55,491 nucleotides of DNA, from assembly GCA_007280875.1 (NCBI GenBank), contig QYQJ01000019.1, positions 1 through 55,491 on the forward strand, written 5' to 3'. The DNA comes from Bacteroidota bacterium (GTDB taxonomy: Bacteria; Bacteroidota; Bacteroidia; Bacteroidales; FEN-979). Every line of letters starts with the position of its first letter. Position 1 is the first letter of the stretch. This document shows positions 27,719-46,745 of this stretch, in pieces. The translations under genes and the position numbers were made by a program. A model generated the notes under the pieces. That model searched no databases and was not told where the DNA came from. It saw nothing but the letters and a program-made list of their open reading frames with translations.

Positions 27719-27796
27719 TTTGAATTTAGTTACCACCTATCTTTTCACCCCTTAAAGATATATAAATTAAAACAATACCTCCAACGGAAAAAATTC

Positions 27797-27804
27797 TATT
27801 TTTG
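27797..27804 (+). promoter_or_regulatory. Bacteroidota -7 box (TATTTTTG)
   Basis: TAnnTTTG match. It is too close to ATG 27806 and so favours the MKKLFMG start at 27830. It may drive the downstream cluster. Confidence 0.45.
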
Positions 27805-27829
27805 TATGCAGATTCTAAAATATGTCTTG

Positions 27830-28528
27830 ATGAAAAAGCTATTCATGGGGATTCTGCTGGTTTGCTCGACCGGATTCCTGCAGGGTCAGAACGGCCTCAG
27901 CTTCTCGGCCGGGTATCTCTATACCCATACCAGTGTGGCCGAATACAAACGCCCGGACTTTAATTTTTACATTCTCGATTATGTTTCAATCAATCCAAAC
28001 AGGAGTTCCGTATACGCCTCCGTTGGTATTAACCTGGACCTGGGAAACCGGTTTTACCTTTCCACAGGGATGAACTACCAGGAGATGGGGATTACCAACA
28101 TCAGTTTCACCGATACGCTGAATACGTTTTATTCCTATAAAGCCAACAAACATTACATCGGGTGGTCGTTGCTTCTGAATTACCACTACCGGTTTCGCGA
28201 CAGCCGGTTTGGCATCTTTGCCGGTGCCGGGCCTAAAATCGATTTTGCCATTGGTTATATCAGTGTCGCCGAAGCGGCCCCTTTCCGGGCCCGGGATTTT
28301 ATGACCCCATTTGCCCGGTTCAATGTGGTGGATTTCTCCATAGCTATAGAAGCGGGGGCCACGTTTCAACTGGGACCGGGTAATCTTTTTGCCCGGTTGA
28401 ATTATTTCCAGGGATTGAGTGATGTATTGAAGAATGATTACGTTGTGGGGAAAACGGTCTCATTTGGATTGGATGCAGGATATACCTTACCGTTGGACAA
28501 GATCCGGTTTTCCGGAAAGAAGAACTAA
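27830..28528 (+). CDS. Outer-membrane beta-barrel protein (small porin/PorT-like family)
   Basis: Signal peptide (LLVCSTGFLQGQ) and alternating amphipathic strands with aromatic residues. Confidence 0.6.
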   Translation: MKKLFMGILLVCSTGFLQGQNGLSFSAGYLYTHTSVAEYKRPDFNFYILDYVSINPNRSSVYASVGINLDLGNRFYLSTGMNYQEMGITNISFTDTLNTFYSYKANKHYIGWSLLLNYHYRFRDSRFGIFAGAGPKIDFAIGYISVAEAAPFRARDFMTPFARFNVVDFSIAIEAGATFQLGPGNLFARLNYFQGLSDVLKNDYVVGKTVSFGLDAGYTLPLDKIRFSGKKN

Positions 28529-28553
28529 CTAGTATCCATTAAAACATAGAACC

Positions 28554-29771
28554 ATGATTAGATTCCTCCTAATTTTCTGGTGTACACTCACCATTTCAGG
28601 CGAGCTTCTGGCGCAGGAAACAGTCCAGTGGCGCGGTCCGGAACGTAGCGGCAAATACCCGGCTACCGGGTTGCTGAAATCGTGGCCTGAAAGCGGACCA
28701 GCTCTCCTCTGGCATGTCGACGGCCTCGGCAAGGGACATTCATCCGCGGTGGTCACAAAAGATAGAATTTACCTTTCCGGTACCCTGGAAGAGACCGGTT
28801 ACATCTTCTGTTTTTCACCGGATGGTAAACTGCTCTGGAAAGTCCCATACGGAAAAGAGTGGACCGAAAGCTGGCCGGGTTCCCGCAGTACACCACTTTA
28901 CGTAGATGGCAAACTTTACATGATGAGCGGCTTTGGTAACCTGTTTTGCATGGATGCCGGTACCGGTAAATTTATCTGGAATGTTGATCTCTTCCGCGAA
29001 TACGACGGACGCAGTATCAAATGGGGCGTAACCGAGAACCTCCTGGTAGACGGAGATGTACTTTATTGTACACCCGGAGGGGAGAAGAATAATGTGATCG
29101 CCCTCGACCGGAACACCGGGAAACTGATCTGGTCCTGCCCCGGAAAGGGAGAGGTTAGCGCCTATTGCTCCCCGTTGCTGATCAAACTTCCGAAACGGAA
29201 TGTGCTGGTGACACAGACCGCTAATTCCATCCTCGGGATTGATGCGAAGACCGGGATCTTACTCTGGTCGCATCCACAGCCGAACAAATGGTCGGTCCAT
29301 GCCAATACCCCCTATTACCAGGACGGGTATGTTTACTGTGTGTCAGGATACGGACAGGGAGGCGTTCAGTTAAAGATCGCAGCTGACGGGAGCGTCAAAC
29401 AGGAAATGTGGCGGAATACCTTGATCGATAACCGGATGGGCGGATTTATCGTGCTGGACGATAGGATTTACGGATCAGACGATTCGAACAAGGGATGGTT
29501 TTGTGTAGATTGGAACACCGGGAAGGATATCACCACGGAGATCATGCCGGGAAGAGGGGTGGTCATTTACGCTGATGGGATGCTATACTGCTACAACGAT
29601 TCCGGGGAATTTACCCTGGCGAAACCAGCTCCTGCCGGATTGCAGAAAACAAGTTCCTTCCAGGTGCCCTATGGGGAAGACCAGCACTGGGCACATCCGG
29701 TGATCACCGACGGGAAACTCTTCATCCGGCATGGAAGTGCCCTGATGGTGTACGATATCCGTCAGAAGTAA
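28554..29771 (+). CDS. PQQ-like (BamB-like) beta-propeller repeat protein, Sec signal peptide
   Basis: Repeated xxDxxTGKxxW blades (MDAGTGKFIWNV, LDRNTGKLIWSC, IDAKTGILLWSH). The N-terminal signal ends at ...ELLAQE. Confidence 0.8.
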   Translation: MIRFLLIFWCTLTISGELLAQETVQWRGPERSGKYPATGLLKSWPESGPALLWHVDGLGKGHSSAVVTKDRIYLSGTLEETGYIFCFSPDGKLLWKVPYGKEWTESWPGSRSTPLYVDGKLYMMSGFGNLFCMDAGTGKFIWNVDLFREYDGRSIKWGVTENLLVDGDVLYCTPGGEKNNVIALDRNTGKLIWSCPGKGEVSAYCSPLLIKLPKRNVLVTQTANSILGIDAKTGILLWSHPQPNKWSVHANTPYYQDGYVYCVSGYGQGGVQLKIAADGSVKQEMWRNTLIDNRMGGFIVLDDRIYGSDDSNKGWFCVDWNTGKDITTEIMPGRGVVIYADGMLYCYNDSGEFTLAKPAPAGLQKTSSFQVPYGEDQHWAHPVITDGKLFIRHGSALMVYDIRQK

Positions 29772-29831
29772 ACAGGATTTTCATGTGAATCCATTCCCAG
29801 ACCCCTCACAATGAACTAACCAAAAAGCCAT

Positions 29832-29839
29832 TATCTTTG
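29832..29839 (+). promoter_or_regulatory. Bacteroidota -7 box (TATCTTTG) abutting the next start codon
   Basis: Exact match. Its last G is 5 nt before GTG 29844. Confidence 0.4.
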
Positions 29840-29843
29840 TGAG

Positions 29844-31280
29844 GTGACTATTACAAAAAGGAACATAGTTAAATTTATTCCGTATGTAGTTGTTCTTCTG
29901 GCAGCCGGTGTTGTGATCTGGTGGTTTATATACAATCCGGTAAAATCGTTGACACTGGCGGTGCCGGGAATGGACAACAGGCCCGAACATGCCGGTAGTG
30001 CAGGAGAAGTGGGACTTATCGGTGAATTTTTCTCCTTCTCAGGAGTGGGAGAAAATATACCGGGAACCCGGTGGCCGCGGTTTCGGGGTACCGACCTGGA
30101 TAACATCAACAAGGAACCTGTTAACCTGATCAGCACCTGGGGCGCAGAGGGGCCGGACATTCTCTGGACCCTGGAACTGGGAGAAGGGCATGCGGCTCCG
30201 GCAGTATATGACGGCCGGGTTTACCTGCTCGATTACGATGAACTTCGGAAACGGGATGTGCTGCGATGCCTCTCTCTGAAAACCGGTCAGGAGTTCTGGC
30301 GTCGTTCCTACAAAGTCCATCTGAAGCGGAATCACGGGCTCTCCCGGACCATACCGGCTGTCACCGACAGGTATGTGGTGACCATTGGCCCCCGTTGCCA
30401 GGTGATGTGTGTGGACCGCCTTACAGGCGACTTCCGCTGGGGTATTGATCTGGAAAAGGAATATGGAACTGAGATCCCTTTCTGGTACACCGGGCAGTGT
30501 CCCCTGATTCTGAACGATACGGCCATCATTGCTGTGGGAGGATCCTCCCTGATGATCGGAGTGGATTGTAAAACCGGAACTGTTGCGTGGCAGACCCCTA
30601 ACCCAAATGGCTGGAAGATGTCCCATGCTTCGGTGATGCCAATGACGTTCAGAGGAAAAAAAATGGTGATCTATCCGGCAATCGGCGGGGTATGCGGGAT
30701 CTCATTGGAAGGCCCCGACCGTGGCAAAATTCTCTGGGAAACCCCGGCATTTTCCCCGTCGGTGGTTGCCCCCTCTCCGGTGGTCCTCGACCGGGGACGA
30801 ATATTCCTCACGGCCGGGTATGGGTACGGAGGGGCCATGTTACAGGTGAAGGAGCAAAGCGGAGTTTTTTCAGTTGAAATCATTCAGAAGTACAAACCTT
30901 CGGAAGGGCTGGCCTCGGAGCAGCAGACGCCGGTATACTCTCACGGTTACCTTTTTGCTATCATGCCTAAAGATGCAGGAGAATTGCGCAATGAATTTGT
31001 CTGTGCCAATCCCGATAATCTGCAGGAGATCGTGATGCGCAGCGGGAAGACCGAGCGGTTCGGACTGGGGCCCTACATCATCGCCGATGGGAAGTTTTTT
31101 ATCCTGAATGATGATGGTGAACTGACGATAGCCAAACTTTCCACCAGCCGGTTTACCATGCTGGGCCGGACCCGGATCATGGAGGGACAGGACTCCTGGG
31201 GGCCGATTGCAATCACCGGGGGTTACCTGCTGATGCGGGATTCGAAGCAGCTGGTTTGTCTGAATATAAAAGCTGAATAA
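29844..31280 (+). CDS. PQQ-like beta-propeller protein with N-terminal TM anchor
   Basis: TM helix (FIPYVVVLLAAGVVIWWFIY) followed by propeller blades (LSLKTGQEFWR, VDRLTGDFRWG, VDCKTGTVAWQ). The GTG start is uncertain. Confidence 0.75.
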   Translation: MTITKRNIVKFIPYVVVLLAAGVVIWWFIYNPVKSLTLAVPGMDNRPEHAGSAGEVGLIGEFFSFSGVGENIPGTRWPRFRGTDLDNINKEPVNLISTWGAEGPDILWTLELGEGHAAPAVYDGRVYLLDYDELRKRDVLRCLSLKTGQEFWRRSYKVHLKRNHGLSRTIPAVTDRYVVTIGPRCQVMCVDRLTGDFRWGIDLEKEYGTEIPFWYTGQCPLILNDTAIIAVGGSSLMIGVDCKTGTVAWQTPNPNGWKMSHASVMPMTFRGKKMVIYPAIGGVCGISLEGPDRGKILWETPAFSPSVVAPSPVVLDRGRIFLTAGYGYGGAMLQVKEQSGVFSVEIIQKYKPSEGLASEQQTPVYSHGYLFAIMPKDAGELRNEFVCANPDNLQEIVMRSGKTERFGLGPYIIADGKFFILNDDGELTIAKLSTSRFTMLGRTRIMEGQDSWGPIAITGGYLLMRDSKQLVCLNIKAE

Positions 31281-31296
31281 GCAGGGAAAGAGATCA

Positions 31297-32304
31297 ATGG
31301 AGGTGAATTCAAACAAATGGGCAATGAAGAAGAAACTGGTAATCGCACTGGCACTGGTCCTGCTGGTGGCAGTAATAGGGTATATGGTTGTGGATCTCTT
31401 TTTCACCGATGGAGGTCGAAATGACAACCCCTTTGATTACGGTCTGAAGGATCTCCGGAAGAGCGATTCCGCCCTGCTGGCCTATCGGGAAATACAGCAC
31501 TTTTCCACCGGATTATCAGAAGTTTATGGAGTCGCTGTCGATGCCCACGACCGCATCGTTGTGGCCGGCGCCAACGGCGTGGAGATCTATTCACCTGAGG
31601 GAGTCCGTTTCATGTTGTTTCCTTTTGACGATACCGCTTACTGCCTCACCATCACACCGGATGCGGACCTGCTCCTGGGAATGGTGGATCATGTAATGAT
31701 CATGAACGCGGAAGGAGAAATCGTCAGCAGGTGGAAACCGGAAAATGAGGGATCTGTCCTTACCAGCGTGGCTACCAACGGAACGGATGTGTTCGTTGCC
31801 GATGCGGGGACACGAATCGTCTATCACTATGATATGGATGGGAAGTTATTGAACCGGATCGGAGAAGCGGATTCCCTTCAGGGAATCCCGGGACTGGTGA
31901 TCCCCAGCCCTTACTTCGATGTGGGGATCGGACGGGACGATGAGTTGTGGGTGGTCAATTCGGGGCGACACCTATTTGAGGCTTTCCGGCCTGATGGCAC
32001 CCTGATCTCCACCTGGGGACAATCTTCCATGGATGTCGAGGGGTTCTGCGGATGCTGCAACCCTTCCCATTTTACCCTATTGAAGGATGGTTCATTTGTC
32101 ACGAGTGAAAAGGGGGTCGAACGGGTAAAGATCTATGACCCGACCGGCACATTCCAGTGCCTGGTTGCAGCTCCCGATCAGTTTGACGAAGGAACCCGAG
32201 GGCTGGACCTGGCAGTGGATTCACAGGAAAGAATCGTGGTGCTGGACCCCTGGCGAAACCAGGTAAGGATTTTTGTACGAAACGAAAAAAGTAATGAAGA
32301 GTAA
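31297..32304 (+). CDS. NHL-repeat six-bladed beta-propeller protein, N-terminal TM anchor, CxCC motif
   Basis: TM (LVIALALVLLVAVIGY) and NHL-like blades (GVAVD..DRIVVA, VFVADAGTRIVYHYD, LWVVNSGRHLFEAF, RIVVLDPWRNQVRIF). There is an unusual VEGFCGCCNPSHF segment. Confidence 0.65.
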   Translation: MEVNSNKWAMKKKLVIALALVLLVAVIGYMVVDLFFTDGGRNDNPFDYGLKDLRKSDSALLAYREIQHFSTGLSEVYGVAVDAHDRIVVAGANGVEIYSPEGVRFMLFPFDDTAYCLTITPDADLLLGMVDHVMIMNAEGEIVSRWKPENEGSVLTSVATNGTDVFVADAGTRIVYHYDMDGKLLNRIGEADSLQGIPGLVIPSPYFDVGIGRDDELWVVNSGRHLFEAFRPDGTLISTWGQSSMDVEGFCGCCNPSHFTLLKDGSFVTSEKGVERVKIYDPTGTFQCLVAAPDQFDEGTRGLDLAVDSQERIVVLDPWRNQVRIFVRNEKSNEE

Positions 32305-32548
32305 ATCAGAACCGGAAACTACGAAGCAATCAAGGCGAAAGTTTTTGGCTTCGCTTGTTCGCACTGCCATTGGTGCCGGACTGGCTATCACAGGAGGGTA
32401 CCTGCTACTCCGGGAGGAGCCGGCAACCCTATGCCCGATTGATTTTGCCTGTAGCCGATGCGATAAACTCCGGCAATGCATTCTTCCTGAAGCCACCGCT
32501 TTCCGGATCCGGGAATTACAGCAGAGAACGAATACAAAAAGCAGGTAA
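32294..32548 (+). CDS. Small Tat-signal protein with four Cys (Cx5Cx2Cx6C)
   Basis: Canonical twin-arginine motif SRRKFLASL plus an h-region. The mature part is only about 45 aa and carries CPIDFACSRCDKLRQC. The ORF overlaps the preceding stop by 11 nt. Confidence 0.5.
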   Translation: MKSKSEPETTKQSRRKFLASLVRTAIGAGLAITGGYLLLREEPATLCPIDFACSRCDKLRQCILPEATAFRIRELQQRTNTKSR

Positions 32549-32559
32549 GTCACGGTACC

Positions 32560-33159
32560 ATGGAGGAAAAACAAAAAGGAAAGCAGAAAGAAAAAATGGT
32601 CGACCGGCGGACATTCATCCGTACCGGTGTTCAGGTCTCGATCGTTGTCGGGCTGGGCGGGTTGACTGCCCTGGTCGCCCGGCGAACGGGTTCCGGAGAA
32701 TATGTGTGGCAGCTCGATCCGGCCAAATGCACCCAGTGCGGACGGTGTGCCACCAGCTGTGTCAAAACCCCCTCGGCCGTGAAGTGTGTCCATGTGTACG
32801 CCATGTGCGGCTACTGCGATCTCTGCGGAGGTTATTTCCTGCCGGAGACCAAGACGCTCAACACAGGTGCCGAGAATCAACTCTGTCCGACCAAAGCGAT
32901 CAAGAGGACCTATATCGAAGATCCCTTTTTCGAGTATACCATCGACGAGGAATTATGTATTGGCTGCGGAAAATGTGTGAAGGGGTGCGGGGCTTTCGGC
33001 AATGGCTCACTGCAGCTCCAGGTGCGGCAAAACCTGTGCGACAACTGTAACGAATGCTCCATCGCCCGGAATTGTCCATCGGGTGCCTACTCCCGGATTC
33101 CGGCCGGCAGACCTTATCTCCTTAAGGGATTCGGAAAGGAAAAACTGGATATCACTTAG
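32560..33159 (+). CDS. Tat-exported polyferredoxin (NapG/NosG-like)
   Basis: Tat motif DRRTFIRTG. Cys clusters are CTQCGRCATSC, CGYCDLCGG, CIGCGKCVKGC and CDNCNECSIARNCP. Confidence 0.8.
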   Translation: MEEKQKGKQKEKMVDRRTFIRTGVQVSIVVGLGGLTALVARRTGSGEYVWQLDPAKCTQCGRCATSCVKTPSAVKCVHVYAMCGYCDLCGGYFLPETKTLNTGAENQLCPTKAIKRTYIEDPFFEYTIDEELCIGCGKCVKGCGAFGNGSLQLQVRQNLCDNCNECSIARNCPSGAYSRIPAGRPYLLKGFGKEKLDIT

Positions 33160-33173
33160 CCCGTACGAACAAA

Positions 33174-34457
33174 ATGAAAAAGGGAATCGCACTCACCATC
33201 CTGGCTCTTCTGTTTGCCTGGCAAATGATCTCCACCTTTGCGATCCAGCGATTCCCGAAACCGGAATTTGAATCGGGATACATCACACCCGAAACGCTGC
33301 TCCCCAGCCCCCGGGCGGAGATCCTTGAGGTACTGGATGTGGCCGTGTTGCTGCTCGCTCTCTCCGTTGTCACCTGGGCTGTATTGAAACGCAGGTCCCG
33401 TAACCTGGTTTTCTGGATATCCGTTTTCTCCCTGGCCTATTTCGGCTTCTACCGGGAGGGATGTGTCTGTTCGATCGGAGCCATCCAGAACGTCACGATG
33501 GCCCTTTTCAACGGCTCGTATATCATTCCTTGGACGGTACTTGTTTTCTTCATGGCCCCTCTGCTCTTCACCCTGATCTTTGGCCGCACGTTCTGTGCCG
33601 GCGTTTGTCCTTTCGGAGCCCTGCAGGACCTCATCTCCTGGCAACCCCGAACCATCGGACCACGACTCAACGCCGTACTTGGAATAATACCCTATATCTA
33701 TCTGGGACTGGCTGTGTTATATGCCGCCACCGGAACCGACTTCATCATCTGCCGCTACGACCCTTTCGTCGGGATCTTTCGCCTGAATGCCACCTTTGGT
33801 ATGTTTCTCTTCGCCGGGGTCCTGCTTCTTTCCGGCCTCTTCCTCGCCCGCCCTTACTGCCGCTTTCTCTGTCCCTATGGAGTATTGCTCAACTGGGTCA
33901 GCCGGTTTTCGAAATACCACCTGACGATCACCCCCTCCGTATGCATCCAGTGCCGGTTATGTGAAGACTCCTGCCCGTACGAAGCCATAGAAAAGCCGGT
34001 GACAGTGAAAAATCCTGATTCCCGGAAACGTATGGTCAGAAAATTCATGCTGATCGTGTTGCTGAGCCCCTTCTTTATGTTACTGGGAGGATGGACCGGC
34101 TCGCATATCCATGAATCCCTGGCAAGAGTGAACGGGAAGGTCAGGATGGCCGAAGAAATCCTGCATCCGAAACGGATTGCAGGGCAAAGTGAAACGATTG
34201 AAATGACTGCCTTTAAAGCTTCCGGGAAACCGGCGAAGGAACTCTATGCCGAGGTAACCGGAATTCTCCGGGAATTCTATATCGGGGGATGGATCCTGGG
34301 AGGATTCGTAGGACTGACCATCGGAGGACTGCTGGCCGGGCGTCTGATCACCCGGTACAGGACCGATTTTGAACCCAACCGCGGAACGTGCTTCAGTTGT
34401 GCACGGTGTGTGGATTATTGCCCGGTCAAAACAGGAACAGGATCAATTGAATTATGA
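33174..34457 (+). CDS. Integral-membrane polyferredoxin (NapH/NosH/CcoG-type, two CX3CP motifs plus two 4Fe-4S motifs)
   Basis: FCAGVCPFGALQD and YCRFLCPYGVLL (CX3CP after TM helices). It also has CIQCRLCEDSCP and CFSCARCVDYCP, and at least six hydrophobic helices. Confidence 0.8.
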   Translation: MKKGIALTILALLFAWQMISTFAIQRFPKPEFESGYITPETLLPSPRAEILEVLDVAVLLLALSVVTWAVLKRRSRNLVFWISVFSLAYFGFYREGCVCSIGAIQNVTMALFNGSYIIPWTVLVFFMAPLLFTLIFGRTFCAGVCPFGALQDLISWQPRTIGPRLNAVLGIIPYIYLGLAVLYAATGTDFIICRYDPFVGIFRLNATFGMFLFAGVLLLSGLFLARPYCRFLCPYGVLLNWVSRFSKYHLTITPSVCIQCRLCEDSCPYEAIEKPVTVKNPDSRKRMVRKFMLIVLLSPFFMLLGGWTGSHIHESLARVNGKVRMAEEILHPKRIAGQSETIEMTAFKASGKPAKELYAEVTGILREFYIGGWILGGFVGLTIGGLLAGRLITRYRTDFEPNRGTCFSCARCVDYCPVKTGTGSIEL

Positions 34458-36331: not shown

Positions 36332-36380
36332 AACGAATCGAACGCAGATGCGCAGAGAAAAATCGTTCAGGCTTAGCTAA

Positions 36381-38738: not shown

Positions 38739-38741
38739 GTT

Positions 38742-40307
38742 ATGCAGATCACGATCGATCATATCACCATTGACGTACAGGCAGGCCAAACCGTTCTGCA
38801 GGCCGCCGGGTCGGCCGGGATCCCGATCCCCTCCATGTGTTACCTGCCGGGCTATTCCAACCACCCCTCCTGCATGGTGTGCCTGGTCAAGGACCTCAAC
38901 ACCGGGCACCTCTTTCCCTCTTGTGCCATGCCGGTTTCAGACGGAATGAATCTTTCTGCATCCTCCGGAGATGTACTGGATGCAAGAAGAGAGGCGCTGG
39001 AGCTGCTCCTCAGTGACCATGTAGGAGATTGCGAAGCTCCCTGCCGGTTGTCCTGTCCGGCATTTATGGATATTCCCCGGATGAACCGGCTGATAGCCCT
39101 GAAGCGGATGGAAGAAGCACTCCGGATTGTTCGCGAAGACATTGCCCTCCCCCTGGTACTCGGGTATATTTGTCCGGCCCCGTGCGAAAATGCCTGCCGG
39201 CGGAAAAAAATTGACGAACCGGTCTCGATCTGCCTGCTCAAGCGGGTTACCGCCCGGGATGCAATTGTACGCAGCACAGGACTGGAAAAGCCAGAGAAAT
39301 TCACCGGGAAACGGCTGGCTGTGATCGGCACCGGTCCGGCCGGACTGGCTGCAGCCTTCTATACCCTGCGCAGGGGCCATGCTTGTGTATTGTACGATCA
39401 GCATGAACATCCGGGCGGAGCCCTGCGCTACGCGATCCCCGATGACCTGCTACCCAAACCGATGCTCGTCGCCGATATTGATTCTATCTACGCACTGGGA
39501 GGCGAGTTTAGACTGCAGTGTCGGGTTACCGGAGAACTCTGGGAACGGGAGATTCTTCCAGGTTTTGACGCCGTGATCCTGGCCACCGGCTTTCGCGAAG
39601 AATACCCGGTAGAGGAATTCGGGCTTCCTGCATTGGAAAAAGGACTCGTAATCGGAAAAAAGAGCTATACTTCCGGAAAGACGGGTGTGTTCGGTTGCGG
39701 CAGCATCATCTCCGAACAGCTGCTCGCGGTCCGGTCGGTGGCCCAGGGAAAAATGGCGGCGATGGAGGCCGATGCGTATCTTACCGGGAAGACGAATATA
39801 CGCCGAAAACCCTTTTTTGACTCGGTTATCGGACCGTTGATGACGGAGGAACACAAAGAATATGTAAAAGAAGCAACCAAAGAGCCGCGAACAGATCCAA
39901 GCCAAGGGTACCTGGCCGGTTTTTCACCTGATGAGGCAGTCCGGGAAGCCAGCCGGTGCCTGCACTGCGATTGCCGGAAACCGGTCACCTGCAAGCTCCG
40001 GATTTATGCCGATGAATATGGAGTGAACCGGAAGAAATTTGCCCCCGCTATACGGAAACAACTGACCCGGAACCTGCAGCATGAGCTGGTGGTCTATGAA
40101 CCGGAAAAGTGTATCCGGTGTGGATTGTGTGTGGAAATCACCCGGAAGGAACCAGAACTGTTGGGGCTGGCCTTTGTTGGAAGAGGGTTCGATGTCAGGA
40201 TCGCTGTCCCCTTCAGCAAGACCCTGCAGGAGGGATTGGAAAAAGCAGCAGCTGCCTGTGTGGAGGGGTGCCCGACGGGAGCACTTGCATATAGAAGTGA
40301 GAAGTAA
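38742..40307 (+). CDS. 2Fe-2S ferredoxin domain fused to a GltD-like FAD-binding oxidoreductase with extra Fe-S motifs
   Basis: N-terminal NuoG-like 2Fe-2S domain (MCY...SCMVCLV...SCAMPV) and GltD-type Cys region (GDCEAPCRLSCP, CPAPCENACRR). One dinucleotide fold (RLAVIGTGPAGLAAAF) and C-terminal CLHCDC...C and CIRCGLC motifs. I find no second GxGxxA/G Rossmann motif. Confidence 0.75.
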   Translation: MQITIDHITIDVQAGQTVLQAAGSAGIPIPSMCYLPGYSNHPSCMVCLVKDLNTGHLFPSCAMPVSDGMNLSASSGDVLDARREALELLLSDHVGDCEAPCRLSCPAFMDIPRMNRLIALKRMEEALRIVREDIALPLVLGYICPAPCENACRRKKIDEPVSICLLKRVTARDAIVRSTGLEKPEKFTGKRLAVIGTGPAGLAAAFYTLRRGHACVLYDQHEHPGGALRYAIPDDLLPKPMLVADIDSIYALGGEFRLQCRVTGELWEREILPGFDAVILATGFREEYPVEEFGLPALEKGLVIGKKSYTSGKTGVFGCGSIISEQLLAVRSVAQGKMAAMEADAYLTGKTNIRRKPFFDSVIGPLMTEEHKEYVKEATKEPRTDPSQGYLAGFSPDEAVREASRCLHCDCRKPVTCKLRIYADEYGVNRKKFAPAIRKQLTRNLQHELVVYEPEKCIRCGLCVEITRKEPELLGLAFVGRGFDVRIAVPFSKTLQEGLEKAAAACVEGCPTGALAYRSEK

Positions 40308-40308
40308 A

Positions 40309-41478
40309 ATGGAGAAATGGAGAAATAAGACACCCGCGTCATCCGCATTCCATTGGTGCTGGCTGCCAATCTGGATTATGATAGGTACCCTTCTGAACTC
40401 CTTTATCGGGTACAGCCAGACCAAAAACCCGGCATGCTGGCCCTCCTTCCGGGGAGATCCGCAACTCACGGGAACGGCAACGGGTTCCTTAAAACCCCCG
40501 CTTCAACTTCTCTGGACTTTCCAGGCCGGGGATGCCATAAAATCTTCACCCGTGATGTGTAACAACATGATCTTCTTTGGGTCCGATGACGGATTTATCT
40601 ATGCCCTCACCCGCGATGGGAAGCTGAAATGGAAATTCCCTGCCGGAACTGCTGTAGAGGCCGCGCCGCTTTACCTGGATAACACTGTCTATGCGGGTTC
40701 ACTCGAAGGTACGCTGTTCGCCGTGGATGCCACTTCCGGTAAGCTGAAGTGGAAATACCTGACCGAAGGGCAGATAGTTGGCTCCTCCAACTGGACCGTA
40801 ACAGCCGACGGCAGAAGGAAAGAGATCCTGACAGGCAGCTACGATTACAATCTTCACGCAGTCGATGCGGTTTCCGGAACGCCATTATGGAAGTATGAGT
40901 CCAACAATTTCATCAACGGATCTGCGGCCATAAGCGGGAGCCTGGCGATCTTCGGCGGATGCGACGGATACCTCCACCTGGTGAACACCGGTACCGGAAA
41001 GGTGGAGGACACCATCAACCTGGAAACCTATATCGCCTCCTCGGCAGCTATACAAGGCAATCAGGTCTGGTTTGGAAATTATGACGGGGAGTTCTTCTGC
41101 GTCGACCTGAAACAGCGATCGATCCGGTGGAAAACCGGAGGCGGAGGACCGTTTCTCTCTTCCCCTGCTGTTTTTGGCGAACGGGTGGTGATCGGATCAC
41201 AGAACCGTTATCTGTACTGTTATCATACCGAAACAGGAGAACTTATCTGGAAGTACAAAGCGCTTGGCAAGGTGGATGCCTCGCCTGTGGTCATTGGGAA
41301 TCTTGTGGTGATGGCATCCTCCGACGGTCGGGTGCATCTGCTGGAACTGGAAACCGGGAAAGAGGTCTGGGTGTATGAGATCGGGAGCCAGATTACGGCC
41401 ACCCCTGGGGTTGTTGCAGGGATGATCCTTGTGGGAGCTCATGACGGAATACTCTACGCATTTGGACCGGCAAAATGA
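40309..41478 (+). CDS. PQQ-like beta-propeller protein, signal peptide
   Basis: The start is set at ATG 40309 (MEKWRNK...), 1 nt after the previous stop. It has a hydrophobic signal, then WPSFRGD and blades (ALTRDGKLKWKF, VDATSGKLKWKY, VDAVSGTPLWKY, YHTETGELIWKY, LELETGKEVWVY). Confidence 0.8.
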   Translation: MEKWRNKTPASSAFHWCWLPIWIMIGTLLNSFIGYSQTKNPACWPSFRGDPQLTGTATGSLKPPLQLLWTFQAGDAIKSSPVMCNNMIFFGSDDGFIYALTRDGKLKWKFPAGTAVEAAPLYLDNTVYAGSLEGTLFAVDATSGKLKWKYLTEGQIVGSSNWTVTADGRRKEILTGSYDYNLHAVDAVSGTPLWKYESNNFINGSAAISGSLAIFGGCDGYLHLVNTGTGKVEDTINLETYIASSAAIQGNQVWFGNYDGEFFCVDLKQRSIRWKTGGGGPFLSSPAVFGERVVIGSQNRYLYCYHTETGELIWKYKALGKVDASPVVIGNLVVMASSDGRVHLLELETGKEVWVYEIGSQITATPGVVAGMILVGAHDGILYAFGPAK

Positions 41479-42824
41479 ATCAAAAGAGGAAAACCATGAA
41501 AATAATACAGATCGTACCGGGTTTTGGAGGCACATTTTACTGCGGTAATTGTTTGCGCGACAGTGCCTTGATCCAATCCCTGCGGAACGAAGGACACGAT
41601 GCATTGACCCTGCCCATGTACCTCCCGCTTACCCTGAATGGAGAGCCCCATACCGACGGGATCCCCGTCTTCTATGGTGCGGTGAATATCTACCTGAAAC
41701 AACGTTATCCCTGGCTCAGAAATATGCCTCACATGCTGGAACGCCTCCTGAATTCATATCCTGTCCTGCGCCTGGCTGCGCACAAAGCGGGATCCACCCG
41801 GGCAGAAGGACTGGAGGAGATGACCGAATCGATGCTGCTCGGGAGTGAGGGAAACCAGCGGGTCGAACTGGGCGAGCTGATCAAATTCCTCCAGCAGGAG
41901 AAACCTGACGTAGTGCACCTTTCAAATGCACTTCTTCTGGGAATGGCCAGGAGGATCAGGGAAGAGTTGAATATCCCGGTGATCTGCTCCCTCCAGGATG
42001 AAGATGTATGGGTGGATGCCATGCGACCCTCTTTCCGTGAGCGTATCTGGGAATTGATGACCCTGAACGGGAACTATGTGGAGGGGTTCATTGCCGTAAG
42101 TCATTATTACGCCGGTTTAATGCAGCAACGGATGAAGATCCCTGATGAAAAACTGCATGTAGTCCATATCGGGGTGAATCCGGATGCCTATGAACCTACC
42201 GTACCGGCGACCGATCCACCAGCCATCGGATTCCTTTCCAGGATGAACGAAGGAAATGGATTCGGGCTGCTGGTCGATGCCTTCCTGTTGCTGAAGAAGA
42301 AACAGGAGTTATCTTCACTGCGGTTGTATGCCACAGGGGGGATGACCGGTGACGATCTGCCGTTTTTCCGGAAACAGATACAAAAACTGAAAAAAGCGAA
42401 CCTGCAAAACCAGGTGGAGGTGCTGCACGACTTCCGGCAGGACCGGTTAAAGGATTTTTTCAAAAAAATCACAGTACTTTCCGTTCCGGTTTTGAAAGGA
42501 GAAGCATTCGGTTTATATCAGCTGGAGGCTCTGGCCTCCGGGATTCCTCTTGTTCAGCCAGCACTGGGTGCGTTTCCCGAAATCATCGAAACCACCGGTG
42601 GCGGGGTGATCTACCGACCCAATACAGCAGCAGCCCTGGCTGAAAAGCTCGAAGAGGCACTGGCCTCGGGAGCCGGTCTGGAGGTGATGAGCCGGGCGGG
42701 TACAGAGGCTGTAGCCCAACGGTTTAACTGCATGAACTTTACCCGAAAGCTGGTAGAGATCTATCAGCAAATTCTTGAATCAAACCCGACACAATATGCT
42801 GGCAGCACTTCAACAGGTAGATAA
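41475..42824 (+). CDS. Glycosyltransferase family 4 (GT-B, EX7E)
   Basis: EX7E motif (GEAFGLYQLEALASGIPLV) and a GT-B architecture. The N-terminus has CGNC. The start overlaps the previous stop (ATGA), and ATG 41496 is an alternative start. Confidence 0.8.
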   Translation: MNQKRKTMKIIQIVPGFGGTFYCGNCLRDSALIQSLRNEGHDALTLPMYLPLTLNGEPHTDGIPVFYGAVNIYLKQRYPWLRNMPHMLERLLNSYPVLRLAAHKAGSTRAEGLEEMTESMLLGSEGNQRVELGELIKFLQQEKPDVVHLSNALLLGMARRIREELNIPVICSLQDEDVWVDAMRPSFRERIWELMTLNGNYVEGFIAVSHYYAGLMQQRMKIPDEKLHVVHIGVNPDAYEPTVPATDPPAIGFLSRMNEGNGFGLLVDAFLLLKKKQELSSLRLYATGGMTGDDLPFFRKQIQKLKKANLQNQVEVLHDFRQDRLKDFFKKITVLSVPVLKGEAFGLYQLEALASGIPLVQPALGAFPEIIETTGGGVIYRPNTAAALAEKLEEALASGAGLEVMSRAGTEAVAQRFNCMNFTRKLVEIYQQILESNPTQYAGSTSTGR

Positions 42825-43467
42825 AAGTTATGATCATCCCGTTTTAAAGGAGGTCTCCCTGACCATCGCCCCCGGTGATTCAATCGCCATTGTAGGCCCA
42901 TCAGGATCAGGGAAGAGCACCCTGCTCAACATCCTGGGCACGCTCGACCGTCCCTCCTCCGGACAGGTAATCCTGAACGGAGAACTGGTTAAATCCATGA
43001 ATGAGAACCAGTTAGCCGGAATCCGGAACCGCTTCATCGGATTTGTATTTCAGCTCCATTACCTGCTACCCCAGCTTACCCTGATTGAAAACGTCATGCT
43101 CCCAACCCTTCCGGAGAAGAATAAAAAGAGCGTAAAGGAGGCCGAAGAACGGGCCCATCGCTTGCTTGAGCGGGTGGGTCTCTCAGAGCTGGCATACCGA
43201 CTGCCCGGAACAATGTCGGTAGGAGAATGTCAGCGTGCGGCAGTGGTCCGGGCGCTGATCAACAGACCGGGATTGCTCCTTGCCGATGAGCCGACCGGGT
43301 CGCTGGATGAGGACCACGCGCAGGCACTCGGGGAACTCCTGGCCGAACTGAACAGGGAAGAGAACATGGGGCTGGTGGTAGTTACGCACTCCATTGAGCT
43401 GGCGCGGCGGATGAAGGTGCGCTACCTTCTCCATTCCGGCAGGCTTGAAAAGATGGAAGAAACATGA
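42796..43467 (+). CDS. ABC transporter ATP-binding protein (MacB/LolD-type)
   Basis: Walker A GPSGSGKST, a signature-like MSVGECQR and Walker B LLLADEPTGSLD. It overlaps the end of the GT4 gene. Confidence 0.9.
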   Translation: MLAALQQVDKSYDHPVLKEVSLTIAPGDSIAIVGPSGSGKSTLLNILGTLDRPSSGQVILNGELVKSMNENQLAGIRNRFIGFVFQLHYLLPQLTLIENVMLPTLPEKNKKSVKEAEERAHRLLERVGLSELAYRLPGTMSVGECQRAAVVRALINRPGLLLADEPTGSLDEDHAQALGELLAELNREENMGLVVVTHSIELARRMKVRYLLHSGRLEKMEET

Positions 43468-46400
43468 AGACAGGAACGCTGATATACAGGAATCTGCGTT
43501 TTTACCGGCGACCCTACCTTGCCATTCTGGTCGGTGTGATGGTCAGTACCGCGGTACTCACCGGAGCGCTTCTGGTCGGGGATTCGGTCAGAGGATCGCT
43601 GGAGAGACTGACAAACCTGAGGTTGGGCTCGACCCGATGGGCAATGAAACCGGGTGATCGTTTTTTCCGGGTTGCTTTGGCAGCCGACCTCTCCCGGAAA
43701 TTGAACCGGCCTGTGGTACCAGTGCTTCAGCTGACAGGAATCGGGGTCAATGTCGCGACAGGCGACAGAGTTCAGAATATTGAGGTAGTGGGGATTGACA
43801 GTGAGTTTGCTTCACTGTGGAATCCGGTAACGGTTATCCCGGCAATGGATGAGGTGATCGTCAGCGACAACCTGGCATTAAAACTGGACCTGCAGGTAGG
43901 TGATCCGCTGCTGATCCGGCTGCCGAAAGTAGCAAAAACCCCGCAGAATGCTCCTTTTGTGGCGGATGAGACCCCAGCGGCATCGATCCGGCTTATCGTC
44001 AGAGCCATTGCCGGAGAGGAGAACATGGGAAGATTCAGCCTGAAAAACAACCAGCAGGCTCCCCTGAATGCATTTGTTTCGCTGGAGCAACTGGGGGAAC
44101 GGGTCGGTTTGCCGGGATCTGCCAACCTGCTTCTGATTCCTGTAACCGGTGAAGCTGCCTTAACCACGGAGCAACTCGACACGACCCTTGCACGGGTCTG
44201 GCAGGTACAGGATGCCGGAATCCGGATTGAACGGCTGGGTCGACCCGTTCACTATCAAATCGTCACGGACCGGATCTTCTTTGATGATCAAACTGTTCAG
44301 GCCATCCGGCAGAGCCTGCCAGGAGCAGAACGGATGTCTATTTACCTGGCAAATACCTTTTCTTCCGACCACAGGGAGACCCCTTATTCTTTCGTTGCAG
44401 CGGTGGATAGCGGTATCCTGCCCGGTTCACCACAACCCGGGGAAATCATTGTTACCGACTGGCTGGCAGATGACCTGCATATCCGGCCGGGTGATTCCCT
44501 GACCATGACCTATTATGTAATGGGGCCACTCAGAAGATTGCAGGAGAAAGGGGCAGGATTTACCGTGTCGGGGATCATCCCGTTGCGGACAATTCCTTCC
44601 GGAGAGGCCATGATGCCCGCGTTTCCCGGGATGAATGACGCCGGCCATTGCCGAGACTGGGAGACCGGCGCTCCGATCGACCTGGATCGGATCCGTGATC
44701 AGGACGAGGCCTATTGGAATACTTTCCGGGGAACACCCAAAGCATTCATCTCCCTGACCGATGGAGAGAAATGCTGGGCCAATCCATTCGGAACAGTCAC
44801 CGCTTTCCGCGTTAACTCAAATATCGACTCCCTTATTCTTGCCTCCCTGGATCCTGCCTGGTACGGATTTCTCTTCCGGCCTGTCTGGGAAGAGGGGCAG
44901 CAAGCCGCGATGAATTCTACCGATTTCGGAGGCCTCTTTCTCAGTCTCAGTTTTTTTCTGATTGCTTCCGCACTGCTGCTGACCGCTTTGCTTTTTTCTC
45001 TCCATGCCCGTACACGGATGTCTGAAGTGGGTGTACTTTCCGGGCTGGGTTTCCGGAAAAGGGAGATCATGCGTATCCTGATGGCAGAAGCACTCCTGGT
45101 GGTGATCCCGGGCGCGATCCTGGGGGCTCTCACAGGAATCATTTATAACAAATTCATTCTCATAGGATTGAACACCCTTTGGCAGGATGCGGTAAGAACC
45201 TCTATGCTCCGGATGGTGGTCGGCTTTTCCACGCTCGCCTTCGGAGCAATCAGTGGATTTATTCTGGCCGGGATGGTGCTGTTTTTGACACTGAGAAGGC
45301 AACTGCGGAAGCCCGTTTCAGGTCTTGTAAGAGGAACAATGGTTCCGGCACCCGCTGATCAGAGGCGGAACAGAAAAATCCGACTGGGAATAGGAATTAT
45401 ACTGGTATCTTGTTCACTGATCTTTCTGGTGGCATTACTGACCACTTCGCTGGCACAGGACGCAGAGCTCTTTCTGGCAGTGGGGGGATTGATGATGGGA
45501 GGAGGGATCTTTCTGATGAATGCGTGGCTGGTACCCTTGCCCGGGAGACAGCCTAAACGGGTTAGCGGTATACTGCCCCTGGTATGGAAACTCGGCTCCC
45601 TGAAGCGGGGCCGGGGACTGGCAGCCATTTCATTGCTTGCGTTGGGAACTTTTACGGTTATTATCACCGGCGCCAACCGGAAAACCTTTTATGGGGCGGA
45701 ACGGGACCGGCAATCGGGAACCGGCGGTTTTCTCCTGTGGGGCGAGTCTACCATGCCGGTGCTGTACGATCTCAACACCCCTTCCGGAAAATCTTATTTT
45801 GGCCTGCAGGATGAACCGGTGCTGCAGGATATCAGGTATTTTCAGCTCCACCGTCTCGACGGAAACGACGCAAGTTGCCTGAACCTGAATCAGGTTCCGC
45901 AACCCATGATGCTCGGAATTCCGGAGCGGGAGTTCGACCGGCTGAATGCATTCCGGCTCGTGAATGCCATGCAGAATGTAGATCCGAAGCACCCCTGGCG
46001 GGCTCTCGGGAAGGAAATTGTGCCCGGAGTGATCCCTGCTTTTGCCGATCAGACCGTCATCACCTGGGGATTAAGGAAAAAGGTGGGCGATACTTTGCTG
46101 TTTCGCGACGAGACCGGTGAAACGCTCCGGGTGGTACTGGCAGGAGGACTGGATAACTCCATATTTCAGGGGCATCTCCTGGTTTCAGACAGCCTGTTGA
46201 AACGTTTTTTTCCCTCTATAAGCGGATCCCGGATCATGCTGGTTGACGGGCCATTTGACCGGCAAACGGAAATTGCAAACAGGCTGGAAGCCCTGTTTGT
46301 AGACAATGGATTGGTCACCATTCCGGCGTCGGAACGCCTGGCTGAATTCAACTCGGTGGAAAATACCTATCTTTCGGTCTTCATGATTCTTGGAGCGCTG

Positions 46401-46745
46401 GGTGTACTGATCGGTACGGTTGGATTTGGCATCATTCTGTGGCGCAACACCCTGGAACGATCCGCAGAGTTGGCTATCTATACGGTAATAGGATTTTCAA
46501 AAAAACTGATATTCAATCTGTTAGTCACTGAATATTGCATCATCCTGGGTGCCGGGATGGGAATCGGAATGATCGGAGCCCTGACGGGCATCCTCCCTTC
46601 ACTGATCTCTCCGGCCTATCAGATGCCGGGTGGATTTCTTTTAATCATCCTGGCAGTGATCTGGGTCAGTGGATTCGTATGGATTGTAATTCCAGCCCGC
46701 TCCATTCTCCGGAAAAATATGGTGCAATCACTTCGTACGGAATAA
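43464..46745 (+). CDS. Large ABC permease with two FtsX-type modules and two large extracytoplasmic domains
   Basis: 1093 aa. The layout is an N-terminal TM, a ~450-aa soluble domain, a TM bundle, a second ~250-aa soluble domain and a C-terminal TM bundle (MacB/FtsX architecture). The start overlaps the ATPase stop (ATGA). Confidence 0.8.
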   Translation: MKTGTLIYRNLRFYRRPYLAILVGVMVSTAVLTGALLVGDSVRGSLERLTNLRLGSTRWAMKPGDRFFRVALAADLSRKLNRPVVPVLQLTGIGVNVATGDRVQNIEVVGIDSEFASLWNPVTVIPAMDEVIVSDNLALKLDLQVGDPLLIRLPKVAKTPQNAPFVADETPAASIRLIVRAIAGEENMGRFSLKNNQQAPLNAFVSLEQLGERVGLPGSANLLLIPVTGEAALTTEQLDTTLARVWQVQDAGIRIERLGRPVHYQIVTDRIFFDDQTVQAIRQSLPGAERMSIYLANTFSSDHRETPYSFVAAVDSGILPGSPQPGEIIVTDWLADDLHIRPGDSLTMTYYVMGPLRRLQEKGAGFTVSGIIPLRTIPSGEAMMPAFPGMNDAGHCRDWETGAPIDLDRIRDQDEAYWNTFRGTPKAFISLTDGEKCWANPFGTVTAFRVNSNIDSLILASLDPAWYGFLFRPVWEEGQQAAMNSTDFGGLFLSLSFFLIASALLLTALLFSLHARTRMSEVGVLSGLGFRKREIMRILMAEALLVVIPGAILGALTGIIYNKFILIGLNTLWQDAVRTSMLRMVVGFSTLAFGAISGFILAGMVLFLTLRRQLRKPVSGLVRGTMVPAPADQRRNRKIRLGIGIILVSCSLIFLVALLTTSLAQDAELFLAVGGLMMGGGIFLMNAWLVPLPGRQPKRVSGILPLVWKLGSLKRGRGLAAISLLALGTFTVIITGANRKTFYGAERDRQSGTGGFLLWGESTMPVLYDLNTPSGKSYFGLQDEPVLQDIRYFQLHRLDGNDASCLNLNQVPQPMMLGIPEREFDRLNAFRLVNAMQNVDPKHPWRALGKEIVPGVIPAFADQTVITWGLRKKVGDTLLFRDETGETLRVVLAGGLDNSIFQGHLLVSDSLLKRFFPSISGSRIMLVDGPFDRQTEIANRLEALFVDNGLVTIPASERLAEFNSVENTYLSVFMILGALGVLIGTVGFGIILWRNTLERSAELAIYTVIGFSKKLIFNLLVTEYCIILGAGMGIGMIGALTGILPSLISPAYQMPGGFLLIILAVIWVSGFVWIVIPARSILRKNMVQSLRTE

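Follow-up and report, generated by a model that had tools for sequence, protein, structure and literature searches.

A run of 14 co-directional genes was found in a genome assigned to the Bacteroidales (Bacteroidota bacterium, lineage FEN-979; GenBank assembly GCA_007280875.1), within a stretch of contig QYQJ01000019.1 that is here referred to as the window, i.e., all 55,491 nucleotides that were analyzed. The products include flavin- and iron−sulfur-type (Fe-S) proteins of a predicted cytoplasmic module, relatives of the polyferredoxins NapH and NapG, and a series of β-propellers. The order in which these genes occur is conserved far beyond the Bacteroidales, and some of their products are fused to each other in relatives. 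With moderate confidence, we propose as a general scheme that the gene products operate together as a single, integrated machine that transfers electrons across the membrane without heme.

Organization of the gene cluster

All long open reading frames (ORFs) in the ORF list of the window between positions 27806 and 46745 are found on the + strand. The run is composed of 13 long genes and one small, conserved gene (Table 1). A first-pass annotation, made from the sequence alone, had counted 14−15 co-directional genes; the number agrees, but one of the 14 is an 84-residue gene that was not listed there explicitly. It fills an apparent gap of 255 nt between the genes for NHL and NapG and overlaps the NHL stop codon by 11 nt. 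The close packing described in the same annotation is seen in the sequence: ATGA stop/start overlaps are located at 34454, 41475 and 43464, while the gaps at 38739−38741 and 40308 are 3 nt and 1 nt long, respectively. Three starts presumably differ from those of the listed ORFs. The gene of the outer-membrane β-barrel probably starts at M9 (27830) and that of NHL probably at M10 (31324), while the true start of the ABC ATPase may be the ATG at 42796.

The cluster had been described as heme-free, which is borne out by scans for the heme c motifs CxxCH, CxxxCH and CxxxxCH: none that is indicative was found in any of the products, and the two pattern matches are 2Fe-2S cysteines of NuoEF. None of the products reaches a curated NCBIfam cut-off.

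Conservation and synteny

Relatives of the NapH-like protein were sought in a species-level genome collection, where tblastn confirmed 470 stretches with the single-protein query and at least 599 with a profile query. The genes PQQ1(n)-PQQ2-NHL-[small Tat-C4]-NapG-NapH-PQQ3-NuoEF-GltD-PQQ4-GT4-ABC-FtsX form a syntenic set in about 150 loci that represent at least 12 phyla, i.e., the homologs are colocalized rather than scattered, as a gene-neighborhood check suggested in the first-pass annotation was meant to establish. The 80 closest loci, all from Bacteroidales, harbor the same genes in the same order (tblastn). Hidden Markov models (HMMs) of the families were run on 151 loci, with the ABC and FtsX counts restricted by the 10-kb flank. 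Among the 60 Bacteroidota loci with full flanks, PQQ2, NHL and NapH were found in all 60, PQQ3 in 59, NapG, NuoEF and GltD in 57 each, PQQ4 in 56 and GT4 in 50. The gene order is kept in 9−12 of 12 long loci from phyla other than Bacteroidota.

Carriers are found in KSB1, Calditrichota, FCPU426, Pirellulales, Phycisphaerae, Verrucomicrobia, Kiritimatiellae, Lentisphaeria/Victivallales, Hydrogenedentota, Marinimicrobia, Omnitrophota, Sumerlaeota and Spirochaetaceae, and in one deltaproteobacterial metagenome-assembled genome (MAG); cultured carriers are Marinifilum flexuosum DSM 21950 and Labilibaculum sp. K2S. Because the carrier genomes are mostly MAGs, some of the taxonomic labels may be wrong. 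One locus labeled "Alphaproteobacteria bacterium" (contig SACF01000022.1) has a layout and identity values nearly equal to those of a Bacteroidales MAG locus, and this label is probably a binning or labeling error rather than a sign of a proteobacterial carrier. According to the record titles, the carriers originate from anoxic, often sulfidic sources such as the Black Sea, Zodletone spring, Lac Pavin and stratified lakes.

Some loci deviate from the common layout. In two Phycisphaerae loci (L141 and L142) the order is rotated to PQQ4-GT4-ABC-FtsX-PQQ2-NHL-NapG-NapH-PQQ3-NuoEF-GltD-PQQ1, which shows that two submodules shift yet remain together. One Verrucomicrobia locus is reduced to NHL-NapG-NapH-PQQ3-NuoEF-GltD, and thereby defines a core gene set. 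HMM matches to the small Tat (twin-arginine translocation) gene were obtained at the same position in 140 of the 151 loci, although a few of these are merely the twin-arginine signal of NapG itself. The outer-membrane β-barrel, which the first-pass annotation had included among the cluster components, is indeed encoded in the window (PF13568), but its gene was seen next to the run in just 7 of the 151 loci, all from the closest relatives, and is a lineage-specific neighbor rather than a core member.

The genes inserted between PQQ3 and NuoEF in some relatives were considered as concealed catalytic subunits and were rejected as such, being unrelated genes of mobile or defense type. No recurrent extra neighbors such as cytochromes or molybdoenzymes were found in the flanks of relatives. 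A triad that does recur beside the cluster, in 4−6 loci from Bacteroidales and Phycisphaerae, consists of a ferredoxin-like protein, a radical-SAM enzyme and a fusion of DUF116 with a polyprenyl synthetase. These genes are located after the cluster, or before it on the opposite strand, and none reaches a curated family cut-off; the triad may indicate that an isoprenoid or a lipid-linked molecule is connected with the system.

The G+C content of the region 28000−46000 is 0.53−0.56, compared to 0.42−0.50 in most of the surrounding window. This difference, together with the synteny across phyla, may point to a horizontal transfer of the cluster as a whole.

The cytoplasmic module

The two cytoplasmic proteins had been described as a NuoEF fusion and a GltD-like protein, i.e., as NAD(P)H-type flavoproteins. 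The fusion of NuoE- and NuoF-type parts stands. It is composed of a NuoE-type 2Fe-2S domain (PF01257, E 4e-48, residues 13−155; the BfuC domain, fused N-terminally), a second 2Fe-2S domain, a NuoF-type FMN/NADH core with a 4Fe-4S cluster motif and a C-terminal 2x[4Fe-4S] domain. Over residues 181−785 the protein can be aligned with NfnB (9n5u_B, E 5.9e-204) from end to end, and all of the Cys motifs are retained; the B subunit of StnABC (8oh5_B) and HydB of HydABC match nearly as well. The additional clusters of BfuB, i.e., the N-terminal 2Fe-2S and the C-terminal 2x[4Fe-4S], are those that set bifurcating enzymes apart from an ordinary NuoF (PMC9304861). The Bfu family is defined by the BfuBC core and comprises 17 BfuB clades without an assigned third substrate; as membrane-bound types, only Mbh-Bfu and Nuo-Bfu have been predicted (PMC9304861).

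The assignment of the second protein as a complete GltD did not hold. It contains an N-terminal 2Fe-2S domain, a HydA/NuoG-type 4Fe-4S domain, Fer4_20, one Rossmann segment of FAD type (residues ~183−345, ~160 residues) and a C-terminal Cys-rich/4Fe-4S region, which resembles the F-cluster domain of HydA. Alignments to GltD-type proteins span residues ~97−285, and the matches to StnA and NfnA in the PDB cover only the N-terminal ~285 residues, i.e., the Fe-S part and the first Rossmann segment. In orthologues from Rikenellaceae and FCPU426 (L100:15418, L143:15375, L086:13700), the Rossmann/FAD segment is cleanly deleted while all Fe-S motifs stay. A reading as a full, NADPH-binding GltD was therefore rejected, and an essential role of NADPH is unlikely because the nucleotide domain is incomplete and, in some lineages, absent. 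The partial matches and the deletion instead suggest that the protein is a BfuA-like electron wire: its N-terminal Fe-S region matches those of NfnA, StnA and HydA, and it has no catalytic domain. Taken together, the two proteins would constitute a Bfu-type module, i.e., a BfuC-BfuB fusion with a BfuA-like partner, which by homology implies the use of NADH plus ferredoxin.

Iron−sulfur proteins of the membrane and the periplasm

The first-pass annotation had recognized a NapH-type membrane polyferredoxin with CX3CP motifs and a Tat-exported polyferredoxin of NapG type, and both assignments are confirmed. The NapH-like protein has about eight transmembrane (TM) segments and two CX3CP motifs of the Fer4_5 type. 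Its 2x[4Fe-4S] ferredoxin domain is split (C257.. and C406..), and the loops G-C-V-C and I-C-R-x-D-P are conserved. The curated models are not reached, with scores of 49 bits for the NapH/MauN model TIGR02163 (cut-off 213) and 45 bits for NF007013 (cut-off 234). Among solved structures, no relative at the sequence level was found for this protein or for PQQ2. The NapG-like protein has an RRTFIR Tat motif and 16 Cys residues in four motifs that are conserved across phyla; only generic Fer4 models match.

The small protein encoded between NHL and NapG harbors an SRRKFL motif, a hydrophobic anchor and then the pattern C-x5-C-x2-C-x5-C, with R14, R15, C47, C53, C56 and C62 conserved. It matches no NCBIfam family. 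In one Pirellulales locus (L089) and one Victivallales locus (L158) it constitutes the N-terminus of NapG, which ties the two proteins to each other; it is probably a small periplasmic Fe-S or other metal-binding subunit attached to NapG. Because the twin-arginine motifs are conserved in both, they are expected to be exported loaded with their cofactors.

A second set of fusions links the membrane protein to a propeller. The relatives of the NapH-like protein, clustered at 50% identity, comprise 382 representatives at E<1e-30, and the best 150 were examined for length and fusion. Of these, 10 are ~1000 residues long, and in the three that were read directly (P0245, P0276 and P0341) the NapH-like part continues into the TM linker and propeller of PQQ3. 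These fusions show that NapH is directly tied to the PQQ3 propeller. They also bear on topology: because the paralogues PQQ1 and PQQ4 have signal peptides, the PQQ3 propeller must be periplasmic, and since three TM helices separate this propeller from the C-terminus of NapH, the CxxCxxCxxxCP motif and the split dicluster domain of NapH would, by this reasoning, be located in the cytoplasm. Proteins exported via Sec cannot carry Fe-S clusters that are made in the cytoplasm. Because the Sec-exported propellers are without Fe-S clusters, the four clusters of NapG and the ligand of the small Tat protein are the only obvious redox centers in the periplasm.

The propellers

Six periplasm-facing propellers, five PQQ-like and one NHL, had been counted in the first-pass annotation, but the window contains five, i.e., four PQQ-like propellers and one NHL propeller. 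In relatives the total reaches up to eight owing to tandem duplication of PQQ1, which is present in 0−5 tandem copies; in 55 loci, additional ORFs separate PQQ1 from PQQ2, and these are paralogues of PQQ1. PQQ1 is presumably a soluble periplasmic protein.

PQQ2 is by far the most conserved of the propellers across phyla. It has an invariant basic loop, K161-R162-N163-H164-G-x-S167-R168, as well as H116, H261 and six conserved Cys residues. In structure predictions with AlphaFold2 (AF2), which were made for single chains, PQQ2 was modeled with a pLDDT of 86.5, and the top Foldseek match was BamB followed by tetrathionate hydrolase. The conserved residues suggest a putative binding or catalytic pocket, and we infer that PQQ2 is the candidate substrate-binding or catalytic subunit. 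The AF2 model of NHL (pLDDT 88.7) is a generic six-bladed NHL propeller, for which the top Foldseek matches are the NHL domains of TRIM2 and Thin; the protein has an invariant loop G-F-x-G-C-C-N-P with the vicinal pair Cys253-Cys254. PQQ3 has a conserved loop with R71, D74 and R78 within its N-terminal TM part and a low-complexity linker in front of the propeller. Its best sequence matches in the PDB are tetrathionate hydrolase (E 1e-10) and then BamB. Tetrathionate hydrolase was considered as a lead for both PQQ3 and PQQ2 but is at most a speculative hint, as the alignment reflects generic repeat similarity and does not permit any inference about an active site.

A search with HMMs for known catalytic subunits among the propellers, proposed in the first-pass annotation, revealed none that reaches a curated catalytic family. 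The scores for PQQ-dependent dehydrogenases are 47−69 bits with TIGR03075 (cut-off 480) and 20−42 bits with TIGR03074 (cut-off 833), and the folds are BamB-like; a reading as PQQ-dependent dehydrogenases was thus rejected. The propellers comprise ~350−400 residues, compared to ~550−600 for the catalytic propeller of PQQ dehydrogenases, and no PQQ biosynthesis genes (pqqA-E) were seen within the 55-kb window. The propellers also remain below the cut-off of the BamB model TIGR03300 (20−131 bits, cut-off 285), and their anchors are TM helices or ordinary signal peptides.

The PQQ4-GT4-ABC-FtsX block

PQQ4, GT4, the ABC ATPase and the FtsX-type permease are encoded contiguously even in the two rotated Phycisphaerae loci. 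GT4 has an N-terminal motif, F-Y-C-x-N-C-x-R-D, that is conserved across phyla, and the CxxC pair within this motif is unusual for GT4 enzymes. In Marinifilum and Labilibaculum (L134, L137) the GT4 gene is absent, i.e., GT4 is an accessory member.

The ABC ATPase scores 237 bits with the LolD model TIGR02211 (cut-off 308). The permease has two large periplasmic domains and displays only weak similarity to LolC; it is assigned, from its domain architecture, as a putative partner in an ABC system of type VII, i.e., of mechanotransmission type. No genes for MacA/HlyD or TolC partners were found with the cluster. The earlier designation as a MacB-type exporter is thus retained at the level of the FtsX/type VII superfamily, while the separate ATPase, the permease with two FtsX domains and the lack of MacA/TolC differ from MacB itself.

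Relation to described systems

The closest parallels to the membrane part are the NapGH, NosGH and MauMN pairs, which also combine a Fer4_5 CX3CP membrane protein that has a cytoplasmic dicluster ferredoxin with a Tat-exported four-cluster ferredoxin. Those pairs operate with NapA/B/C, NosZ, MauAB or cytochrome c, all of which are missing here. NapA (molybdopterin), NapB and NapC domains were found neither in the 14 products nor as recurring genes in the flanks of relatives, and scans of the products and of these flanks revealed no known catalytic terminal reductase and no recurring heme motif, in agreement with the first-pass annotation. Further differences to NapGH-type pairs are the additional C-terminal TM helices and the third and fourth Cys motif of the NapH-like protein, the small Tat partner with four Cys residues, a propeller that is fused to or obligately paired with NapH, and a cytoplasmic Bfu module that would replace quinol as the donor or act alongside it. 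The NapGH discussed for the Caldithrix genome is part of an ordinary nap cluster (PMC5317091).

The cytoplasmic module resembles the NfnABC (9n5u), StnABC (8oh5) and HydABC members of the Bfu family in having the BfuB core, a BfuC-type domain, here fused, and a putative BfuA-like Fe-S subunit. It differs in that this subunit is without a catalytic domain and retains a partial GltD with one Rossmann segment, missing in some lineages; Nfn-Bfu and StnABC have a complete GltD-type FAD- and NADPH-binding domain. The presumed third substrate would be reached via membrane and periplasmic Fe-S proteins, and the type is NapH-linked, in contrast to the predicted membrane-bound Mbh-Bfu and Nuo-Bfu.

NapH-like proteins have been described as modular conduits between the cell interior and extracytosolic enzymes, leading "to reductases or from oxidases" (Meheust et al. 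2021, PMC8238504). The flavinylated systems of that study share with the cluster a PF12801 NapH-like membrane protein, and some of them contain propellers of PQQ-type alcohol dehydrogenases, while the propellers described here are not quinoproteins of ExaA type. Furthermore, the cluster has no FMN_bind or ApbE match, and those systems have no cytoplasmic Bfu donor. The propellers share fold and repeat family with BamB and tetrathionate hydrolase, i.e., PQQ-free, eight-bladed PQQ_2-type proteins, but differ from BamB in scoring below the model cut-offs, in having inner-membrane or signal-peptide anchors and in a genomic context that is not bam. As in the type VII ABC systems LolCDE, FtsEX, MacB and YbbAP, a LolD/FtsE-like ATPase is combined with an FtsX permease that has large periplasmic domains; here, however, the permease is a single chain of 1093 residues with two FtsX domains, and all curated models are below cut-off. 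A defense system was also considered and rejected, as six cluster proteins gave no PADLOC match.

Thus, the kinds of components are known, i.e., NapGH/NosGH pairs, Bfu, PQQ_2 propellers and type VII ABC systems. A description of the combination was not found in the literature, Pfam, NCBIfam, PADLOC or Rfam resources searched, which agrees with the earlier statement that the cluster matches no described system; as far as these libraries reach, this negative reflects absence of evidence.

Proposed electron path and alternatives

In the scheme outlined above, electrons from NADH at the FMN and, by homology, also from ferredoxin would enter the FMN and Fe-S clusters of BfuC-BfuB and be passed to the BfuA-like wire protein. 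The Bfu module would then supply the cytoplasmic 2x[4Fe-4S] dicluster domain of the NapH-like protein, through which the electrons would cross the membrane and continue to the four-cluster ferredoxin NapG and the small Tat protein. These Fe-S proteins are predicted to act on a substrate that is bound to the membrane-anchored PQQ2, NHL and PQQ3, while the soluble PQQ1 paralogues perhaps bind or present this substrate. The PQQ4-GT4-ABC/FtsX block would be accessory; it may help to assemble the machine or, as type VII ABC systems suggest by analogy, act on it mechanically or serve as an exporter. The first-pass annotation had proposed a path from cytoplasmic NAD(P)H to the propellers, and the path itself is consistent with the conserved unit and with the NapH-PQQ3 fusions, while the NAD(P)H pair at its origin is replaced by a Bfu-type entry for NADH and ferredoxin. 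Complex formation, the direction of flow, the use of ferredoxin and the chemistry at the propellers are all parts of the scheme that we infer.

Flow would be directed outward, such that an extracytoplasmic acceptor is reduced by NADH, possibly in confurcation with reduced ferredoxin, and provides anaerobic fermenters with an electron sink. We consider the outward direction the most likely one, a choice that draws on circumstantial evidence, i.e., the anoxic and often sulfidic sources of the carriers. Our guess is that the acceptor is an anionic or S-S-bonded substrate. A more specific version is that the system would be the first Bfu-type NADH- and ferredoxin-confurcating enzyme whose third substrate lies outside the cytoplasm, reached through an all-Fe-S NapH/NapG conduit that leads to a propeller enzyme free of heme, molybdenum and flavin. 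This version is tentative, and we would sooner expect parts of it to fail than all of it to hold. To the same degree doubtful is whether the terminal chemistry is categorically new.

Several points weigh against the scheme. The way in which electrons pass through the membrane in NapH-type proteins is not settled; because NapH is classically a quinol dehydrogenase, a quinone may take part. Homology to Bfu is not in itself proof of bifurcation. A recognizable redox cofactor site was seen in none of the propellers, which, together with Sec export free of Fe-S clusters, leaves the catalytic site undefined. The roles of GT4 and the ABC/FtsX pair are not explained by electron transfer, and GT4 is missing in some of the genomes. 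In addition, matches in a scan for σ70 promoters and terminators were no more common than in shuffled sequence, although the model used is unsuited to Bacteroidota.

The same hardware could instead operate inward, such that a low-potential periplasmic donor is oxidized at the propeller/NapG side and Bfu bifurcates the electrons to NAD+ and ferredoxin. The sequence does not set a direction, Bfu enzymes are reversible, with the best-characterized ones oxidizing a third substrate near −400 mV while reducing NAD+ and ferredoxin (PMC9304861), and NapH-like conduits have been proposed for both directions (PMC8238504). Nevertheless, we consider this mode of operation unlikely. Periplasmic donors with a potential that suffices to drive the reduction of NAD+ and ferredoxin are rare, and no catalytic subunit of hydrogenase, formate dehydrogenase or sulfur-oxidation type was found in scans of the cluster or in the flanks of relatives. 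Moreover, as judged from the record titles, the hosts are mostly fermentative heterotrophs of anoxic habitats. Such organisms typically need electron sinks.

Slightly less probable still is that the enzyme is linked to the quinone pool, i.e., that Bfu and the NapH-like protein constitute an NADH(/ferredoxin):menaquinone oxidoreductase, or that NapGH serves as a quinol dehydrogenase, like its counterparts in Nap and Nos, with the propellers as structural or assembly factors. Such a role is suggested by the classical function of NapH as the quinol-oxidizing subunit (PMC5317091, PMC8238504), by the prediction of a quinone-reducing, membrane-bound Nuo-Bfu (PMC9304861) and by the propellers having the scaffold protein BamB as their nearest fold. 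It would, however, leave unexplained why a Tat-exported four-cluster NapG and an additional Tat-exported Fe-S protein are present without a downstream enzyme, as well as the strict co-conservation and fusion of propeller and NapH and the invariant polar residues of PQQ2.

An involvement in envelope maintenance or biogenesis appears improbable. Reducing power would then be exported for periplasmic or outer-membrane thiols, for metals or for the maturation of glycoconjugates, with BamB-like scaffolds, a redox-active vicinal Cys pair in NHL, and GT4 and ABC/FtsX making or exporting the product. The invariance of Cys253-Cys254, the conserved Cys residues of PQQ2, the BamB-like folds and the presence of GT4, a LolD-like ATPase and an FtsX permease are in line with such a function, as is the triad with the polyprenyl synthetase, which adjoins 4−6 loci from two phyla. 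However, a 14-gene, Bfu-powered machine is heavy for the maintenance of thiols, both GT4 and the triad are optional, and no thioredoxin, DsbD or Dsb-like domain was found in the cluster scans.

Least probable is that two or three unrelated operons (redox genes, PQQ4-GT4-ABC and the PQQ1 array) merely reside side by side: although PQQ4-GT4-ABC-FtsX has changed its place as a unit with respect to the redox genes in Phycisphaerae (L141, L142), is missing from the Verrucomicrobia locus and is without GT4 in the two cultured genomes, both blocks are adjacent and co-directional across phyla even when rearranged, and in the window GltD-PQQ4-GT4-ABC-FtsX are joined by overlapping stop/start codons and, at GltD/PQQ4, a 1-nt gap.

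Flanking DNA

The cluster is flanked by housekeeping genes, a type I restriction−modification system (Table 1) and one protein with a tail of the type IX secretion system (T9SS), which identifies the host as a member of the Bacteroidota. Just upstream of the gene for the outer-membrane β-barrel, at 27796−27803, the sequence reads TAtTTTTG; it resembles the −7 element of Bacteroidetes promoters, the consensus of which we take to be TAnnTTTG. No RNA elements were found at the gathering thresholds of Rfam.

Table 1. Features of the cluster and its surroundings (positions in the window, unless a locus is indicated)
Feature	Position	Strand	Basis
Outer-membrane β-barrel (OMP_b-brl_2)	27806..28528	+	Pfam PF13568, E 4.9e-10, 40.2 bits vs cut-off 27
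PQQ1, 8-bladed PQQ_2/BamB-like propeller with signal peptide	28554..29771	+	Pfam PQQ_2 E 1.4e-27
PQQ2, 8-bladed PQQ_2-type propeller, N-terminal membrane anchor	29844..31280	+	Pfam PQQ_2 E 1.2e-18; TM 11-29
NHL, six-bladed propeller, membrane-anchored	31297..32304	+	Pfam NHL; TM 14-32
Small Tat-signal four-Cys protein, 84 aa	32294..32548	+	ORF and HMM from relatives
NapG-like Tat-exported polyferredoxin, four [4Fe-4S] motifs	32560..33159	+	RRTFIR motif, Pfam Fer4 families
NapH-like integral membrane polyferredoxin	33174..34457	+	Pfam Fer4_5 E 2.4e-16, CX3CP motifs
PQQ3, three N-terminal TM helices and 8-bladed propeller	34454..36331	+	Pfam PQQ_2 E 5.2e-30
BfuC-BfuB fusion ("NuoEF")	36381..38738	+	Pfam domains; PDB match to NfnB 9n5u_B
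BfuA-like Fe-S protein ("GltD-like")	38742..40307	+	Pfam/NCBIfam domains; PDB matches to NfnA, StnA, HydA parts
PQQ4, exported 8-bladed propeller	40309..41478	+	Pfam Beta-prop_ACSF4 206.8 bits (cut-off 133); PQQ_2 E 2e-41
GT4 glycosyltransferase	41475..42824	+	Pfam Glycos_transf_1, Glyco_transf_4
ABC ATPase, LolD/YbbA/FtsE type	42775..43467	+	Pfam ABC_tran E 6e-32
Permease, 1093 aa, two FtsX domains	43464..46745	+	Pfam FtsX in two stretches; TM pattern
2149-aa ORF in flank	4907-11356	-	ORF list
1306-aa ORF in flank, no Pfam match	14379-18299	+	Adjoins DUF748-like protein and FtsX cell-division gene
Type I restriction−modification system	51125-55373	-	Pfam: R subunit (ResIII/EcoEI_R_C), S subunit; third ORF 54573-55373
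Ferredoxin-like/radical-SAM/DUF116-polyprenyl-synthetase triad in relatives	L096:188-3790 (-), L110:18257-21233, L131:18241-21247, L132:16101-18961, L137:20845-21249, L145:537-2539		Neighborhood scan

Implications

If the proposed scheme is correct, the cluster would provide a dedicated, shared route for low-potential electrons from the cytoplasm to the periplasm that uses neither hemes, quinone-dependent molybdoenzymes nor flavinylated proteins. In the more specific, tentative version, an extracellular substrate that is anionic or contains an S-S bond could, for example, be cleaved reductively at the interface between the Fe-S proteins and a propeller. The bifurcating Bfu family would gain a membrane-spanning member, and the large class of PQQ-like/BamB-like propellers would be given its first redox-linked role. 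With Marinifilum flexuosum DSM 21950 and Labilibaculum sp. K2S available in culture, the system can be tested.

Many of the hosts, among them Bacteroidales, Calditrichota, KSB1, Planctomycetota, Kiritimatiellae, Lentisphaerota and Hydrogenedentota, are abundant anaerobic heterotrophs that are not well understood. In the more specific version, the system would represent for them a previously unrecognized anaerobic electron sink or form of respiration, widespread among bacteria of the FCB (Fibrobacteres−Chlorobi−Bacteroidetes) and PVC (Planctomycetes−Verrucomicrobia−Chlamydiae) groups in anoxic, often sulfidic waters and sediments, and it could alter how fermentation balance and element cycling are modeled in sulfidic water columns and sediments.

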